IMG/VR virus record: IMGVR_UViG_3300025853_008930
Coordinates: 1 to 64,000 of that record
DNA length: 64,000 nucleotides
Reading direction: 5' to 3' (one strand)
Source of the DNA: a virus
Shown here: one piece after another, positions 32,172-63,119 of the stretch
Numbering within the stretch: the stretch's first letter is position 1
How the letters are laid out: every line of letters begins with the position of its first letter
Notes under the pieces: model-generated
What the model was told of the DNA's origin: nothing
Database searches by the model: none
Seen by the model: only the letters and a program-made list of their open reading frames with translations
Program-made: the position numbers and the translations under genes

Positions 32172-34721
32172 TTAATCCTCTTTTGGAGGTAATTCAAGAC
32201 TACTATATTTATCTTCATAAATATTCCATAATCCTTTATCAGCATCAGTATCAGCAGGTTTTTGTTCATAGCCTGTCCATGCTAGCCACATTTTCTTTCC
32301 TTTAACTTCAAGCATTCTAACATGAAGTTTAGTTTCAAACTTATTACCCTCTAAGAAATATTCGTGATAGCCTTCCTTTTGAACACCTAACTTAACATCA
32401 CCACTATCAATCAATTTACGCTTGGATATGTTCTTAGCAACAATAGCAGGGAACTTCCCTGCCTTGCCAAATAGTTCAAAGACATCATCTTGTGAATCTA
32501 ATCTAACCATCCAATTAATGCTTTCATCACCTAACTTCATTACTATGTTTAGGCTATCGTCGTCTCTAAGATATATTTTAAACTCGCCACTTCTGTATTT
32601 TTCAGGTGTCTCATATTCTTTCTTGATAGTGTCCATTAATATCTTATCATGCTCGGCAAACAACTTTTTTGTTTTAGCATCAAAGGATATTCCATCTCTA
32701 TTTTCAAACCAATCCTTAACTCTACTTTCTTTGCTTTCTAATATATCTTGATATTCTTTTTTATTATTCTTTACCAAAAAGTTGTGAACTTCTTTAGGAG
32801 TCTTTGCTCCTTTCTCTTTCAAGTAATTAAATATAGCAACAGTAAGTTTAGATTGTTTCGTTTTCATTATCTCTTCTGCTTGTTCTTTCCACAAGTCTAA
32901 ATCCATTAAGGCATTTTTAGCCATTAGATTATCTTGCTCAAAGCCATAGATAGTAAAACCATCCATATCGCTCTTAATTATAATGCTAGCCTCACCGTGA
33001 ATATGGTCAGTAATTACAATGCCTTTCTCTACTTCTTCTACATTATATTTGAGAGACTTGTCAGTATCATTGATTAGCATTTGTAATGTAACTAATTTAT
33101 CCGGTGTTTTACTTTCTGCAATCTCAGTTATCTTTGCGGAATAAACTACAGGCTTACCCTTGACTTCTTTTACCTTATCAATAGAGACTCTAACTACTTC
33201 TCCAACATCTGCTGAAACTTTAGTGTTAGTAGCACTACCAACTTCAAGATAGTTTACTCCTTCTATCTTTTCATCTCCTTCTTCAACCGGCCCTGCCCCT
33301 AATTTGTAAGAAAAGTTAGAACCGTTTTTCTTTTTATCAAGAACAATTAAATCTAGTTCTACAAATGGTTTCCAACGAATCCACTTAGGATTCTTTTTCG
33401 TTCCCAAGAAATATGTAGATGTAGAATCTTTAATCATAGCCCCTTCTGCTGTTGGTATTTCCATAATTTTCTTAGCATATTCTTCAACATCTTTTAGGCT
33501 GTCTGCAACCCTAGTATCTTTTTTAGATGGGAATGTTAAGTCCTCACTAGAATGTATAGAATAGTTGTTAAACATTATTTGCATTCTATTTTGTAGCGTA
33601 TCTTCCATGAGGTTTTCTTCATTGTGTCTCATAATGTCAAACACATGAATTCTAACCTTGCCTTCTCTTTTTCCCTCTAAGTATTCTGCGGCTTCTTTTC
33701 TTTTAAGAGAATCTTCTCCGTCAAATAAAACTAAAGAAGCATCTAAGATACAATCACCAAAATGTTTTTTCTTTAGTTCCTCAACTGCTTCTTTACACTT
33801 TGATGTAATGTCTTTTCCTGTATAATCATAGACTTTTATATTCTTATCTATTTTATGTAATTGAATTCTAAAACCATCGTATTTTTCTTGAACATAAAAC
33901 TCACCACTAAATCCCTTTAGTTCGTTCATATCTTCTATTGTAAATATTCTATACATTGGTTTGTTAGGGATTATGAAATCACTTTGGGCTTTTTCTTCAT
34001 CGGACTTCTTTTCTTTTAGAATAACTTTATCGTCTTGTTCCTTATCTTTAGTGGCTTTTTCTTCATCCATATCTGTATCTATGTCTTCTAATTCAGCCCA
34101 CTCTTCTTTAGTGTTTTTAGATAAGAATATTAATTCTAACATATTCATAGCGGCTTTTACTTTAGCCTCTACTTTTTTAGAGTCTTTACCATCACCATAA
34201 TGTTCTATAATGTAAAGTGCAACATCATCTACTTCTAGGTCTAATCCCATAAGTCCTTCTGTGATGTCATCCGGTTTCATATCTTTAATTGAATATGCTT
34301 CTTTTGGTAGTGCTTTATCATCTTCTCTAATAGCATAATGAACAAACTTAATCATAAGTTCGGGTGATTCTAATAATGCTTCTAATACATTGCCTTTGAA
34401 TTTTTTAGCGAAGGGGTCACTAACTTCTTCCGAAGAATACCTAAGTGCCTTTATTGCTTCATACAATTTTTCAGCATTATTTGTGCTAACATCGGAGACA
34501 TCATCCGCCTCTAATAAGTCATCATCAATATAATCCTTGAGTTCATTTGAAAGAGCATCCGTCATTTCATATGCGTCTTTAATTCTATTTACTGCGTTTC
34601 TCCATTTAGAACCGTATTCCTTTGGGTCGGTTCTTGCTGAAAGATAAGCGACTCTCGTTCTTTCAAAGAGTCTTAGAATATCTGTGGATATTGACTTATC
34701 CTTCTCAATAAGGAGAGGCAT
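32172..34721 (-). CDS. ATP-dependent DNA ligase with N- and C-terminal extensions
   Basis: EKYDG (motif I), FDIM, EGAMIK, WIRWKP, OB fold. Confidence 0.85.
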   Translation of the reverse strand: MPLLIEKDKSISTDILRLFERTRVAYLSARTDPKEYGSKWRNAVNRIKDAYEMTDALSNELKDYIDDDLLEADDVSDVSTNNAEKLYEAIKALRYSSEEVSDPFAKKFKGNVLEALLESPELMIKFVHYAIREDDKALPKEAYSIKDMKPDDITEGLMGLDLEVDDVALYIIEHYGDGKDSKKVEAKVKAAMNMLELIFLSKNTKEEWAELEDIDTDMDEEKATKDKEQDDKVILKEKKSDEEKAQSDFIIPNKPMYRIFTIEDMNELKGFSGEFYVQEKYDGFRIQLHKIDKNIKVYDYTGKDITSKCKEAVEELKKKHFGDCILDASLVLFDGEDSLKRKEAAEYLEGKREGKVRIHVFDIMRHNEENLMEDTLQNRMQIMFNNYSIHSSEDLTFPSKKDTRVADSLKDVEEYAKKIMEIPTAEGAMIKDSTSTYFLGTKKNPKWIRWKPFVELDLIVLDKKKNGSNFSYKLGAGPVEEGDEKIEGVNYLEVGSATNTKVSADVGEVVRVSIDKVKEVKGKPVVYSAKITEIAESKTPDKLVTLQMLINDTDKSLKYNVEEVEKGIVITDHIHGEASIIIKSDMDGFTIYGFEQDNLMAKNALMDLDLWKEQAEEIMKTKQSKLTVAIFNYLKEKGAKTPKEVHNFLVKNNKKEYQDILESKESRVKDWFENRDGISFDAKTKKLFAEHDKILMDTIKKEYETPEKYRSGEFKIYLRDDDSLNIVMKLGDESINWMVRLDSQDDVFELFGKAGKFPAIVAKNISKRKLIDSGDVKLGVQKEGYHEYFLEGNKFETKLHVRMLEVKGKKMWLAWTGYEQKPADTDADKGLWNIYEDKYSSLELPPKED

Positions 34722-43341: not shown

Positions 43342-43572
43342 TCACTTCTTAGATTTGTTGCCCCAATTATCCGCACCAACTTTACGACATCTAACTAAAG
43401 CACCGCTAGCATAAGCGGAAGGCCACTTATCATATCTGCTACGAACTTTGTAATAACAAGCATCTTGTTTTTTATCGGACTTACGATTTCTGCGGCCTTT
43501 TTTCTTAGCCCGCTTAGAACCTTTTTTTCTTCGAGACTTACTCTTTTTTTGAAGAATATCTTGCCAACTCAT
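43342..43572 (-). CDS. WxxILK-leader basic protein
   Basis: MSWQDILQKK; DACYYKV..RY..WPSAYASG. Confidence 0.6.
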   Translation of the reverse strand: MSWQDILQKKSKSRRKKGSKRAKKKGRRNRKSDKKQDACYYKVRSRYDKWPSAYASGALVRCRKVGADNWGNKSKK

Positions 43573-56015: not shown

Positions 56016-56465
56016 TTAACTCTCCATCGCATTCTTATCTTGGAAACCCCTACTAAATCCCTGCTCAAAGTCTATTCGCTTAACTTCTTTAACCGCACTA
56101 GTAGTAGGGTCGTCTTTTATTTCTTTAAATCTCATAATAGCCAAATCTACAAAAGATTCTATTCCTTCGGGAGTCAATCGCATTATAGTATCATTTTTTG
56201 GACTGTTGCCCCCGAAAAGGTCTACTGTTACAAAGGGCGTATCATCTTCCCCTGTGTCAATAAAAGCAATTTCATATGCCTTATATGAATGAGGGTCTTG
56301 TAATTTGCCGTGAGGAATTGACCCTAATCTATCTCCTGCTACCACGCTTAATTCTAAATCGGGTGCAATTTCAGTTCTTGAGTGATAGCCTCTCCTGTCA
56401 TTATACGGCTTAAACTCAATATCTTGGAATCTAAATTGTTTCTTAAGAATATCTTGCCAAGTCAT
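56016..56465 (-). CDS. WxxILK-leader protein
   Basis: MTWQDILKK. Confidence 0.6.
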   Translation of the reverse strand: MTWQDILKKQFRFQDIEFKPYNDRRGYHSRTEIAPDLELSVVAGDRLGSIPHGKLQDPHSYKAYEIAFIDTGEDDTPFVTVDLFGGNSPKNDTIMRLTPEGIESFVDLAIMRFKEIKDDPTTSAVKEVKRIDFEQGFSRGFQDKNAMES

Positions 56466-61028: not shown

Positions 61029-61100
61029 GGTTTGGCATCGTTATTATTATGAATTACTTTACCTATGGTAATGCCAAACCATATGGTTCACTTTGAGAAC
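61029..61100 (+). repeat. Array repeat R6
   Basis: GGTTTGGCAT..ATGCCAAACC-ATAT-GGTTC-ACTTTGA-GAAC. Confidence 0.9.
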
Positions 61101-61174
61101 ACGGTTCTTATACCGAATCATAGGTAGTAGTCGCTTCAAGGGGTTGAAGTGTAATTATCATTGAGGTGAAAATT

Positions 61175-61651
61175 ATGAATTTGGAAAAACTAGAAACTAA
61201 TAGAAATAACATACGAACATGGATGAAGGAAAACGAAAGCCCGCTTAATGATGCTTTAGAGGGTCTACTCACAGCATCGGAGTTGGCTAAAACTGATGAT
61301 GAGGCGGTCAAGTATTGGTCGTCAATTCGTTCACTTTGTGGCAACATGAGTCCTTCTCCTGTTAGAAAAGGTGTGCAATCAAAATACAGTGTCGAGCAAT
61401 TGGCAGTATTAGACGCTATTGGAACAGAAGTTGATGAGGCTTCTGTCCGCTACCACAACGACGGTATTATGTCTAAGGTATTGTTTTCTCACGGTAAATC
61501 CGGTGGAAAAACTATGCTTGCAGAAGTATTTGGTAAGACTATGAGAAATATGACCATCAGCAAACTTAAGAAAAAGTTAGATGCAGGAATATGGGATGGA
61601 ACTCTAGCCGGTTTAGACTCCTTGACCGAAACAACGGAGGATAATGAGTGA
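61175..61651 (+). CDS. Cassette 6 protein, paralogue of 62460-62969
   Basis: YWSSIRSLCGNMSPSPVRKG...WDGTL; GAGGTGA RBS. Confidence 0.75.
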   Translation: MNLEKLETNRNNIRTWMKENESPLNDALEGLLTASELAKTDDEAVKYWSSIRSLCGNMSPSPVRKGVQSKYSVEQLAVLDAIGTEVDEASVRYHNDGIMSKVLFSHGKSGGKTMLAEVFGKTMRNMTISKLKKKLDAGIWDGTLAGLDSLTETTEDNE

Positions 61652-61686
61652 TTAACATTTCAACCCCTTGTTGCCCCCACTCCCGA

Positions 61687-61782
61687 TTAGGCCGAATAGT
61701 GAAACTACTCTTACAGTGCAGTAAATAAGCACTTCTTAAGAGATTTGAAAAAATAGTTTCACTATTCGGTCTAAGTTTTTTT
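61687..61782 (+). ncRNA. Conserved 3' RNA element, copy 1
   Basis: 21-bp outer stem (one G-U) enclosing CTCTTA-CAGTGC..GCACTTCT-TAAGAG-ATTTG-AAAAAA. Confidence 0.65.
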
Positions 61783-61788
61783 ATTTAG

Positions 61789-61859
61789 GGTTTGATGCGG
61801 CCTTCGGCCTAAATGTTTAAAGAACATTTCATCAAACCATATGGTTCACTTTAAGAACC
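61789..61859 (+). repeat. Array repeat R7
   Basis: GGTTTGATG..CATCAAACC-ATAT-GGTTC-ACTTTAA-GAACC. Confidence 0.9.
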
Positions 61860-61890
61860 CGATTGATATATCTATTGGCATGGAGATAAC

Positions 61891-62238
61891 ATGCGAAAAA
61901 TAACACAAGACGCAATAAGAGCATTTGAACAGCATAAGAAATTTAAGCGAAGCAATACCGAAGTTGAAGTAAGTGGAAGCGGATTATTTGCCGAACTAAA
62001 ACTACATGGGAATACAATCGCCAAAAGTGGAATATTTGAAGGTTTGATGATTTCATCAGCCGGATGGAATACCAACACCACAAAAGAACGCTTAAACGGA
62101 TTTGATGGAGTTCACATCCATCAAAAAGACTTCACATGGTATTTGAATGGCCGTGAATGGACAGGCGAATGGGTTGATGTTGATGATTTCACCAAACACG
62201 GCCATTATTGTCAATTCGTTGGCGGAACATCATTCTAA
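61891..62238 (+). CDS. Cassette 7 hypothetical phage protein
   Basis: ATG 52 nt after the repeat ATAT; LHGNTIA...GWNTNTTKERLN. Confidence 0.7.
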   Translation: MRKITQDAIRAFEQHKKFKRSNTEVEVSGSGLFAELKLHGNTIAKSGIFEGLMISSAGWNTNTTKERLNGFDGVHIHQKDFTWYLNGREWTGEWVDVDDFTKHGHYCQFVGGTSF

Positions 62239-62270
62239 TTATGAACTGATATAGTTTGAGGACTATAACT

Positions 62271-62309
62271 GCCTTTCTCGACCCTTCGGGGTCGGGATTG
62301 GCTTTTTTT
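62271..62309 (+). terminator. Hairpin/T-tract terminator
   Basis: CGACCC-TTCG-GGGTCG followed by a T run. Confidence 0.8.
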
Positions 62310-62311
62310 GG

Positions 62312-62380
62312 GGTTGTGAGTAATGTATTTTATAATACTAGGGGAGTATTACTCACAACCATATGGTTCACTTTGAGAAC
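62312..62380 (+). repeat. Array repeat R8
   Basis: GGTTGTGAGTAAT..ATTACTCACAACC-ATAT-GGTTC-ACTTTGA-GAAC. Confidence 0.9.
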
Positions 62381-62459
62381 TTGATTCATATACTATTAAG
62401 GAAATAGTAGTTGCTTCACGGGGTATGAAGTAAACTTACAAACATCGGAGTGATAAAAA

Positions 62460-62969
62460 ATGATGGAATATAGTAAAATAATTAGCAAAACAGACGATAT
62501 ATTGACTTGGCTTGATGTCAATGATGCAGGTGCTTTGGATAGTGCCATTCGAGGCATCATTGCAGTTGCTAGAGTCGAAGGACAGACAGAAAAACAATAC
62601 GGTAACTATTGGGGTAGTATTCGCCAAATGTGCGGCAACCTCCCAAACTCACCTATCCGCAAAGGAACTCAACCGTCACTACCTGTCGAAGCACAAGCGG
62701 TTGTGGATTCTGTAATGACTCAAGTAACAGATGCTTTTGCGGGTATTACTGAAAACACTGGACTACTTCTTGAAGTTATCCTACCTTTCAGAAATACAAC
62801 CGGCAAAGGCTTTGAGTCTATGGATGACCTAGCCGCATATATGGCAGGTCGAGCCCGTGATGCATTAATTAAGGCTCATAAAGATGGTCGTTGGGATGGA
62901 ACTCTTAACGACGGACTAACAGGTATGACCCCTCCTCAACCTGCATCAAAGAAGGAGGCTAGTAAGTAA
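62460..62969 (+). CDS. Cassette 8 protein, paralogue of 61175-61651
   Basis: YWGSIRQMCGNLPNSPIRKG...WDGTL; GGAGTGA RBS. Confidence 0.75.
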   Translation: MMEYSKIISKTDDILTWLDVNDAGALDSAIRGIIAVARVEGQTEKQYGNYWGSIRQMCGNLPNSPIRKGTQPSLPVEAQAVVDSVMTQVTDAFAGITENTGLLLEVILPFRNTTGKGFESMDDLAAYMAGRARDALIKAHKDGRWDGTLNDGLTGMTPPQPASKKEASK

Positions 62970-63017
62970 GGCTAACCGATTACCCCGTGTTGCCCCTCTA
63001 CTAAATTAATTCAACAA

Positions 63018-63119
63018 ATAGCACCCAAAGGACATTACAACTCATACAGTCAAGAGAGTTCACGACTTCTTATGAGATAGTAAAAAATAAAGTGTCCTTT
63101 GGGTGTCTATGCTTTTTTT
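63018..63119 (+). ncRNA. Conserved 3' RNA element, copy 2
   Basis: Outer stem CACCCAAAGGACAT/GTGTCCTTTGGGTG enclosing CTCATA-CAGTC..GACTTCT-TATGAG-ATAGT-AAAAAA. Confidence 0.65.

Follow-up and report, generated by a model that had tools for sequence, protein, structure and literature searches.

An end-to-end 5'-3' helix maintained by covariation in the predicted mRNAs of a marine virus gene family, and its complementarity to a helicase leader

Why should the two ends of a messenger RNA be complementary to each other in one gene family of a virus, and what could such pairing be for? The question is raised by two genes near the end of the first 64 kilobases (kb) of the IMG/VR virus record IMGVR_UViG_3300025853_008930; this stretch of 64,000 nucleotides (nt), hereafter the window, belongs to a record of 80.7 kb that is 86% complete. 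The genes occupy cassettes 6 and 8 of an array of short cassettes. The initial annotation of the window held that they encode paralogous proteins, that the untranslated regions (UTRs) at the 5' and 3' ends of each mRNA form a helix with compensated changes that reaches the first transcribed base, that the 5' segment can instead fold as a local hairpin, and that the whole is either a two-state switch or a device for RNA processing or circularization. The paralogy is clear (32% protein identity, E = 2.5e-20). We call the helices clamp 1 (cassette 6, gene 1) and clamp 2 (cassette 8, gene 2); positions without prefix are those of the window, G000 coordinates are those of the full record, and L-numbers designate loci fetched from this record or its relatives. 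The explanation that we favor, to which sequence comparison and structure modeling lead us to assign a probability of about 0.72, is that of an end-to-end clamp starting at nucleotide +1, which would protect the mRNA ends and favor closed-loop translation, and which would dock onto a second mRNA.

Inspection of the UTRs confirms the four complementary strings, CAAGGGGTTGAA (61137-61148) facing TTCAACCCCTTG (61659-61670) in clamp 1 and CACGGGGTA (62417-62425) facing TACCCCGTG (62981-62989) in clamp 2, as well as the outward extension of both helices through a 2x2 loop of two U.U mismatches to G-C and C-G pairs (GC 61133-61134 with GC 61673-61674; GC 62413-62414 with GC 62992-62993). The helix of clamp 1 is real but longer than first described: it comprises about 29 base pairs (bp) and includes the stop codon, which had been missed (Table 1). 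Clamp 2 consists of a core of 13 positions and a weaker distal part that adjoins the stop codon. The predicted duplex energies are -36.9 kcal/mol (z = -6.7) and -27.1 kcal/mol (z = -3.5), respectively, each relative to 1000 shuffles of the 3' partner, and cross-pairing of the strands of the two cassettes reaches only -15 and -20 kcal/mol, no better than background. When the complementarity of 5' and 3' flanks is scored for all 178 open reading frames (ORFs) of the 80.7-kb genome, the two clamp genes take the top two places with -46.1 and -33.5, the overall mean being -16.6 and the standard deviation 5.7. Rfam covariance models, searched up to E = 1, gave no match over the clamp strands.

Conservation was analyzed in 36 non-identical homologous clamp loci from IMG/VR, where 38 viral-contig loci were fetched, using duplex prediction with narrowed UTR windows, as whole-UTR windows gave spurious distal pairs. 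A clamp helix of 24-39 bp and -31 to -54 kcal/mol is found in all 36, and it is seen also in about 25 metagenome loci; no clamp-gene homologue devoid of UTR complementarity was encountered among some 60 loci. Every gene in two of the three paralogue subfamilies has this architecture, in which the 5' strand typically opens with GCUUC and the 3' strand runs from the last codons or the stop codon to ...G(U/A)(U/A)GC, after which come a C-rich stretch and a terminator. The sequence at the base of the helix is conserved, whereas the remainder covaries: cognate strand pairs average -48.5 kcal/mol, compared with -31.7 kcal/mol for non-cognate ones. In a gap-free register of the first 13 positions, built from 27 distinct helices, positions 5-13 are paired in 94% of the cells; when partners are shuffled 5000 times, the mean is 64% and no shuffle exceeds 74%. 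Each of positions 6-13 shows three to five Watson-Crick pair types, position 4 is a conserved U.U mismatch in 18 of the 27 helices, and position 3 is U.U, U-A or U.C. At internal positions with Watson-Crick flanks, G.U is observed 63 times and A.C 5 times, an asymmetry that points to selection on the sense-strand RNA and not on duplex DNA. Moreover, the long-range helix is part of the minimum-free-energy fold of all 36 predicted full-length transcripts (560-755 nt), with pair probabilities close to 1 wherever the assigned register is correct. Taken together, the family-wide covariation, the G.U asymmetry and the lowest-energy folds show by comparison of sequences that the end-to-end helix is a real, selected structure which exists in cis, acts in RNA and covaries.

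The position of the promoters indicates where this helix begins. The TATA box of clamp gene 1 starts 26 nt ahead of the first paired G, and across the family a TATA-like box starts 25-29 nt upstream of the first paired G in 30 of 35 distinct promoters, the dinucleotide at -1/+1 being T|G in 29 of the 35. In three neighboring cassettes the ATG lies 39-40 nt past the promoter motif and about 25 nt past the TATA-like box, an arrangement that fits the pattern of leaderless archaeal mRNAs. The first paired G of both clamp genes is located exactly at +39 from the promoter motif, which equals the offset of the leaderless ATGs. From this shared offset and the TATA distance, the clamp helix very probably starts at nucleotide +1 of the mRNA (G61133 and G62413), in agreement with the proposal that it reaches the first transcribed base.

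The alternative local fold is also present. The first 18 nt of clamp 1 (61133-61150) can form the hairpin GCTTCAA-GGGG-TTGAAGT, with GGGG as the loop (-6.6 kcal/mol), in place of the long-range helix; the corresponding hairpin of cassette 8 (62413-62431) is weaker (-4.3 kcal/mol). Such a hairpin at +1, involving the first 18-22 nt or so with a G-rich loop and an energy of -4 to -9 kcal/mol, occurs in 27 of 30 distinct 5' ends. Since its arms covary (for example GCUUCA/UGAAGU, GUCUC/GAGAC and GCUACG/CGUAGU) and the mirror hairpin of the 3' strand is much weaker, the 5' hairpin appears to be selected in its own right; presumably it is the fold adopted by the nascent RNA prior to the synthesis of the 3' strand. 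The two mutually exclusive folds foreseen in the initial annotation are thus both present, the local one likewise kept by covariation.

A second complementarity connects the clamps with another gene. The third paralogue, which lies just beyond the window (G000 64362-64832) and has no clamp, is followed in this subgroup by an invariant TATA box and the leader, about 200 nt long, of a UvrD-like helicase gene; here this region spans G000 64880-65106 (L003:1959-2185), outside the window, with CTTTATATA as the TATA box. The leader forms a covarying long helix that encloses an unpaired bipartite motif and a hairpin, CCAUGUU-UCGGGGGG-AACAUGG. In the present genome the motif reads GGGGCAACAA-A-GAAGU (G000 64999-65013, outside the window), and its half A, GGGGCAACAA (64999-65008), is the exact complement of the 3' base of the clamp plus the next four nucleotides in both clamp genes. 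Among 40 metagenome loci around the third paralogue, 20 contigs (15 distinct combinations) contain the leader together with at least one clamp gene. They display five variants of the motif, GGGGCAACAA, GUGGCAACAA, GGCGCAACAA, GGUGCGACAA and GGCGCAAAA, each of which complements both clamps of its own contig: all 27 of 27 cognate pairs reach 9-12 perfect bp, against 8 bp at most for pairs with a different motif core. The GGUGCGACAA variant (GGTGCGACAA) was forecast from the clamps of L099 and L100, which read UGUCGCACC, and then found; as a nucleotide that is mismatched in cis is changed in this variant, it would be constrained by the pairing in trans. The complementarity between leader motif and clamp base thus covaries at the sequence level. 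In co-folding predictions half B (GAAGU) is placed on nt 1-5 of the mRNA with the remaining clamp intact, for a gain of -5.6 and -16.2 kcal/mol, and in the lineage of L086, where the mRNA begins with GCAUUAC, half B is GUAAU. The alternative to trans pairing, namely that leader and clamps share a site in duplex DNA for a protein or recombinase, is a less parsimonious account of these matches.

Table 1. Features of the two clamp genes; energies are predicted folding energies
Feature	Position	Strand	Remarks
Promoter of clamp gene 1	61080..61113	+	Palindromic CCATATGG motif; TATA-like CTTATAC 61107-61113
5' strand of clamp 1	61133..61163	+	From predicted +1 (G61133) to edge of Shine-Dalgarno sequence
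Shine-Dalgarno sequence GAGGTGA, gene 1	61163..61169	+	Outside the helix
Gene 1, 158-amino-acid protein	61175..61651	+	All-helical, unannotated virus-only family
3' strand of clamp 1	61642..61674	+	Last codons, stop TGA and 3'UTR; ends GTTGC
TTGTTGCCCC, clamp 1 base and single-stranded C-rich flank	61668..61677	+	Complementary to leader half A
3'UTR hairpin domain and T-run, gene 1 (terminator region)	61687..61783	+	-42.5 kcal/mol, z = -7.8
Promoter of clamp gene 2	62360..62393	+	CCATATGG motif; TATA-like CATATAC 62387-62393
5' strand of clamp 2	62413..62439	+	Core GCTTCACGGGGTA 62413-62425; weaker distal part to CTTAC 62435-62439
Gene 2, 169-amino-acid paralogue	62460..62969	+	
3' strand of clamp 2	62962..62993	+	Distal GTAAG 62962-66; stop TAA 62967-69; core TACCCCGTGTTGC 62981-62993
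TGTTGCCCCT, clamp 2 base and flank	62988..62997	+	Complementary to helicase-leader motif
3'UTR hairpin domain and T-run, gene 2	63018..63119	+	-39.6 kcal/mol, z = -5.0

The geometry of the promoters bears on the nature of the host. From 58.4 kb to the end of the window extends an array of short cassettes on the plus strand, each of which has in front of it a T-run, a variable hairpin and the CATATGGTTCACTTT motif; the motif occurs in eight exact copies, all on the plus strand. We read it at first as the PeSL cassettes of a T4-like bacteriophage and, after checks, replaced this reading by that of an archaeal virus. The PeSL arrays of T4-type phages (PMC2839356, PMC4122927) indeed have similar short cassettes with a stem-loop and a conserved promoter, but PeSLs are cassette boundaries and not 5'-3' mRNA helices, and the promoters found here look archaeal (TATA at about -26, leaderless starts). 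A 278-residue protein (L111:7848-8684, G000 71848-72684) has an N-terminal TFIIB-type zinc ribbon (E = 7e-6, 26 bits, below the Pfam cut-off of 29 bits) together with an HTH_11 domain. Encoded by the virus, this protein is a candidate archaeal transcription factor, one that might recognize the TATA promoters of the array. A complete relative, G003, which also has clamp genes, carries a tRNA-Lys(UUU) with an 88-nt intron at position 37/38 (L065:1557-1719), an archaeal-type feature. The zinc-ribbon protein, the intron-bearing tRNA-Lys and the promoter geometry together favor an archaeal host.

The gene content points in a similar direction. Searches of cultured-phage records returned neither similar DNA nor a close cultured relative for the window. 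An ATP-dependent ligase is encoded at 32172-34721, adjoining the prohead protease and capsid genes of the structural module, a second one is located outside this module (L111:13601-15133), and a GroEL-type chaperonin gene of bacterial type is present at G000 74488-75918. In the original description (Philosof 2017, PMC5434244), magroviruses are presented as viruses of Marine Group II archaea in which one ATP-dependent DNA ligase is encoded within the structural module and another ligase within the replicative one, with GroEL in groups B and C and a thermosome in groups A and D, and with archaeal-type replisome proteins (PolB, MCM and others) that are mostly too divergent for simple searches. 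The two-ligase arrangement and a chaperonin gene are both found in the present virus, which by its gene content looks like a magrovirus.

How would such a clamp work? We propose that an archaeal-type TATA promoter would direct a monocistronic mRNA of about 650-700 nt for each clamp gene. During transcription the 5' nucleotides would form the small terminal hairpin with its G-rich loop; once transcribed, the 3' strand would form the far more stable long-range helix and displace it, the first 30 nt or so from +1 being matched to a 3' strand that begins in the last codons, covers the stop codon and ends 20-30 nt into the 3'UTR. The closed loop would then hold only the Shine-Dalgarno (SD) sequence and the ORF. 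The clamp may shield both mRNA ends from exonucleases, with a 5' terminus that would always be paired and a 30-bp roadblock to 3' exonucleases. With the stop codon inside the helix and the SD sequence directly adjacent, a terminating ribosome would be released beside its own start site, amounting to closed-loop translation or re-initiation; termination-reinitiation is already known in archaea (PMC6728339). The base of the helix would remain imperfect (G1-C, C2-G, the conserved U.U mismatches and then an unpaired C-rich flank), and half A of the leader could pair with the 3' strand base and flank while half B pairs with nt 1-5 of the mRNA, giving a three-way junction that would provide each of the two mismatched U's with an A to pair with; this would account for the conservation of a helix base that is not perfectly paired. 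By docking, the helicase leader may finally couple the expression of the early proteins to that of the helicase. We infer these roles with decreasing confidence, from end protection through closed-loop re-initiation to coupling by leader docking.

Several points weigh against this reading. Clamp 2, taken alone, is a modest helix (z = -3.5), and the shuffle statistics overstate independence, as many of the loci are related. The third paralogue subfamily, with a TATA box about 30 nt before the ATG, does without the clamp, so that the protein does not need it. The covariation of half B comes from the single lineage of L086. The leader motif was found in one subgroup only and is absent from four other clamp-bearing contigs, in which the U.U mismatch is conserved as well. 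Searches of the 80.7-kb, 86%-complete record for Pfam PolB and MCM returned no match; with the bacterial-type chaperonin and the TFIIB match below the cut-off, an archaeal host is likely but not proven. Finally, sequence comparison and thermodynamic models are the source of every statement on where the mRNA starts and ends, on the helix in vivo and on the pairing in trans.

A further step would be to regard the clamp itself as a composite docking site, in the sense that only the complete, folded mRNA joins GCUUC and UUGUUGC-CCCC, the leader gaining its toehold at the U.U mismatches and the C-rich flank. We consider this a tentative idea, less probable than its contrary. If true, it would mean a direct mRNA-mRNA circuit linking early-gene and helicase mRNAs in an archaeal virus, which might time or co-localize the synthesis of the helicase and of the small proteins, or trigger decay of the early mRNA by freeing its 5' end.

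Among the other explanations, the one that fares best, although we judge it unlikely, is an autoregulatory operator, in which the helix base (GC, U.U, C-G and the G-run) would be bound by the encoded protein or by a host factor that controls the stability or translation of its own mRNA; it could coexist with the end-to-end clamp proposed above. The clamp is indeed confined to one gene family, in which it persists across 25-35% protein identity, and to no other ORF of the genome; its base is conserved in sequence while the rest covaries, and the protein has conserved basic, glycine-rich loops (KKGRGS and HGKSGGG). On the other hand, conservation of the base is already explained by its complementarity to the leader, also at nucleotides which lack a partner in cis but covary in trans, and no RNA-binding fold or family was detected in sequence and structure searches. 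The protein family comprises 92 clusters in marine metagenomes, none of them annotated. There is no homologue in cultured-phage records or in the genomes of 185,579 prokaryote species, and no family match in Pfam, PHROGs or NCBIfam. The AlphaFold model (pLDDT 88) is all-helical and the proteins, of 158-169 residues, are soluble. A profile search of the PDB returned designed helical proteins only, Foldseek against the PDB nothing below E = 1, a wide structural search only generic three-helix-bundle matches to residues 1-65 (Z <=7.7), BFVD two unnamed viral proteins, and the ESM Atlas no match.

The architecture also calls to mind the hok/sok system, in which the 5' end of the hok mRNA pairs with its 3' end (fbi-tac), a metastable 5' hairpin forms during transcription and a second RNA targets the transcript. 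A similar lock, in which the 5'-3' pairing silences the full-length mRNA as long as its 3' strand has been neither trimmed nor displaced by the leader of the helicase mRNA, would be in keeping with the metastable hairpin, the 3' fold-back and a partner RNA whose pairing overlaps the helix base. We nevertheless regard it as improbable. The pairing in hok hides the translation start, whereas the helix stops at or before the SD sequence at all loci, each of which keeps a strong SD 7-10 nt before the AUG. The predicted unpaired probability of the gene 1 SD is 0.61 with the clamp and 0.37 without it, and for the SD-AUG region across loci it amounts to 0.58 when the 3' strand is present and 0.55 when it is absent; such equal accessibility lends no support to a gating of translation by the switch envisaged in the initial annotation. 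Moreover, hok encodes a small hydrophobic membrane toxin and the clamp genes encode soluble helical proteins of about 160 residues, and the partner of hok is an RNA antisense in cis to its leader, whereas that of the clamp would be the leader of another mRNA, which binds both clamp ends.

Even less credible is the other function that had been suggested, a signal for processing or circularization in which the helix would juxtapose the ends for endonuclease cleavage and ligation into a circular, ORF-bearing RNA. Archaea do circularize RNAs held by terminal helices (pre-rRNA, tRNA introns, C/D sRNAs), the 5' G stacks beside the 3'-flanking structure, the virus encodes two ATP-dependent ligases, and the clamp mRNAs use an internal SD where their neighbors are leaderless. 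The bulge-helix-bulge stems of archaeal pre-rRNA and tRNA introns likewise close a long RNA into a loop, but this arrangement is present in none of the 36 clamp helices, even with relaxed criteria (bulges of at least 2 nt, helix of 3-5 bp). In addition, a helix that starts at the predicted transcription start leaves nothing to cut on the 5' side, and a ligase would accept a triphosphate 5' end only after further processing.

We give least credence to a feature of the DNA, namely inverted repeats flanking a mobile cassette or recombinase core sites with the leader copy as a third, inverted site, for although the genes lie within an array of cassettes bounded by promoter/terminator repeats of the kind that mediates cassette shuffling in T4-type phages (PMC2839356, PMC4122927), and identical cores among partner sites are expected of recombination sites, the 63-to-5 excess of G.U over A.C is strand-specific, the arms covary freely and are not conserved like protein-binding sites, gene order is stable across about 20 contigs, the third copy is located in an unpaired loop of a covarying RNA structure, and no recombinase turned up, in searches none of which was aimed at a recombinase or integrase. 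As regards an integron cassette, whose attC site would act as DNA together with an integrase, the strand-specific G.U excess is an argument for RNA.

The end-to-end clamp thus belongs with the long-range 5'UTR-3'UTR mRNA interactions of the hbs, icaR and hok type. To our knowledge, only a few bacterial transcripts have been shown to close by base pairing between their 5' and 3' parts, and in Archaea such closure has been inferred genetically only. A comparable competition with local terminal hairpins exists in the cyclization of flavivirus genomes by 5'-3' CS/UAR pairing; this concerns the genome of a eukaryotic RNA virus and acts in replication, whereas the clamp belongs to mRNAs of a DNA virus. 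The hbs mRNA of Bacillus subtilis has a 14-bp helix between its 5' and 3' UTRs, which tunes the access of ribonucleases and links the stability of the transcript to its translation (Braun, Durand and Condon 2017, PMC5737220). That helix does not start at +1 and operates in a bacterium with RNase Y and RNase J1, whereas the clamp measures 24-39 bp, is predicted to extend from +1 to the stop codon in a virus whose host is probably archaeal, and differs further by its family-wide conservation with covariation and by its trans-acting partner motif. The icaR mRNA of Staphylococcus aureus similarly pairs its 3'UTR with its own 5'UTR, but does so at the SD sequence, blocking translation and promoting cleavage by RNase III (reviewed in PMC7821165), whereas the clamp helix excludes the SD. 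In haloarchaea, genetic work showed translational control to require both UTRs but identified no base pairing (Brenneis and Soppa 2009, PMC2636863); that case resembles the present one in its archaeal setting and in UTRs that act together, as they would here, and differs in that direct pairing is evident here from the sequences. With respect to the hbs, hok and haloarchaeal cases, the clamp is novel in being longer, end-to-end and family-wide, in its probable archaeal virus and in its partner in trans.

In this family of ocean-metagenome virus genes, which keeps a closure of 25-40 bp, nature has already made compensatory mutants by the dozen. Should the start site and the helix be borne out, the clamp would offer a clean model for the protection and recycling of archaeal mRNAs without caps or poly(A) tails, and the leader pairing would be, in an archaeal virus, the first case of docking between mRNAs that is supported by covariation. 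The combination of 5' hairpin, clamp and toehold would then also represent a compact natural design of possible use in stabilizing synthetic mRNAs.

Some further observations concern the surroundings of the clamps and of the leader. In the long 3'UTR hairpins of both clamp genes the outer stem is variable and an inner motif is conserved (CUCWUACAGU ... ACUUCUUAWGAG); in other virus groups this place is taken by a different 145-nt domain or by a short terminator hairpin only. The G-rich UCGGGGGG loop of the leader hairpin resembles clamp 5' strands in other virus groups. In the genome of G003, a hairpin just upstream of the tRNA-Lys (L065:1484-1550) has a loop, AUGGGGCUU, that complements the clamp bases of that genome; this candidate "anti-clamp" was rejected, as the match is at chance level (a control pattern also gave two matches), and the loop is common only to one 96%-identical relative. 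Two further copies of GGGGCAACA(A) are located at 43355-43364 and 56204-56212, read on the minus strand and within minus-strand coding regions; they were set aside, their number not being clearly above chance. About 190 nt upstream of the third paralogue, within the long AT-rich spacer at 63.9-64.36 kb, CAGTTGCCCGTTTAG (G000 64232-64246, L003:1311-1325) is invariant in four related contigs and resembles the clamp base GTTGCCCC, with which it shows no covariation.

Elsewhere, a related virus shows a weak manA-RNA-like Rfam match on the minus strand of L016:3164-3428 (28 bits, the gathering score being 55; E = 6e-4). Within the window, at least five small minus-strand ORFs between 55786 and 57841 appear to form a paralogous family, with the common N-terminus M(N)xW(Q/K/E)D(I/T)(L/I/V)K(K/Q).

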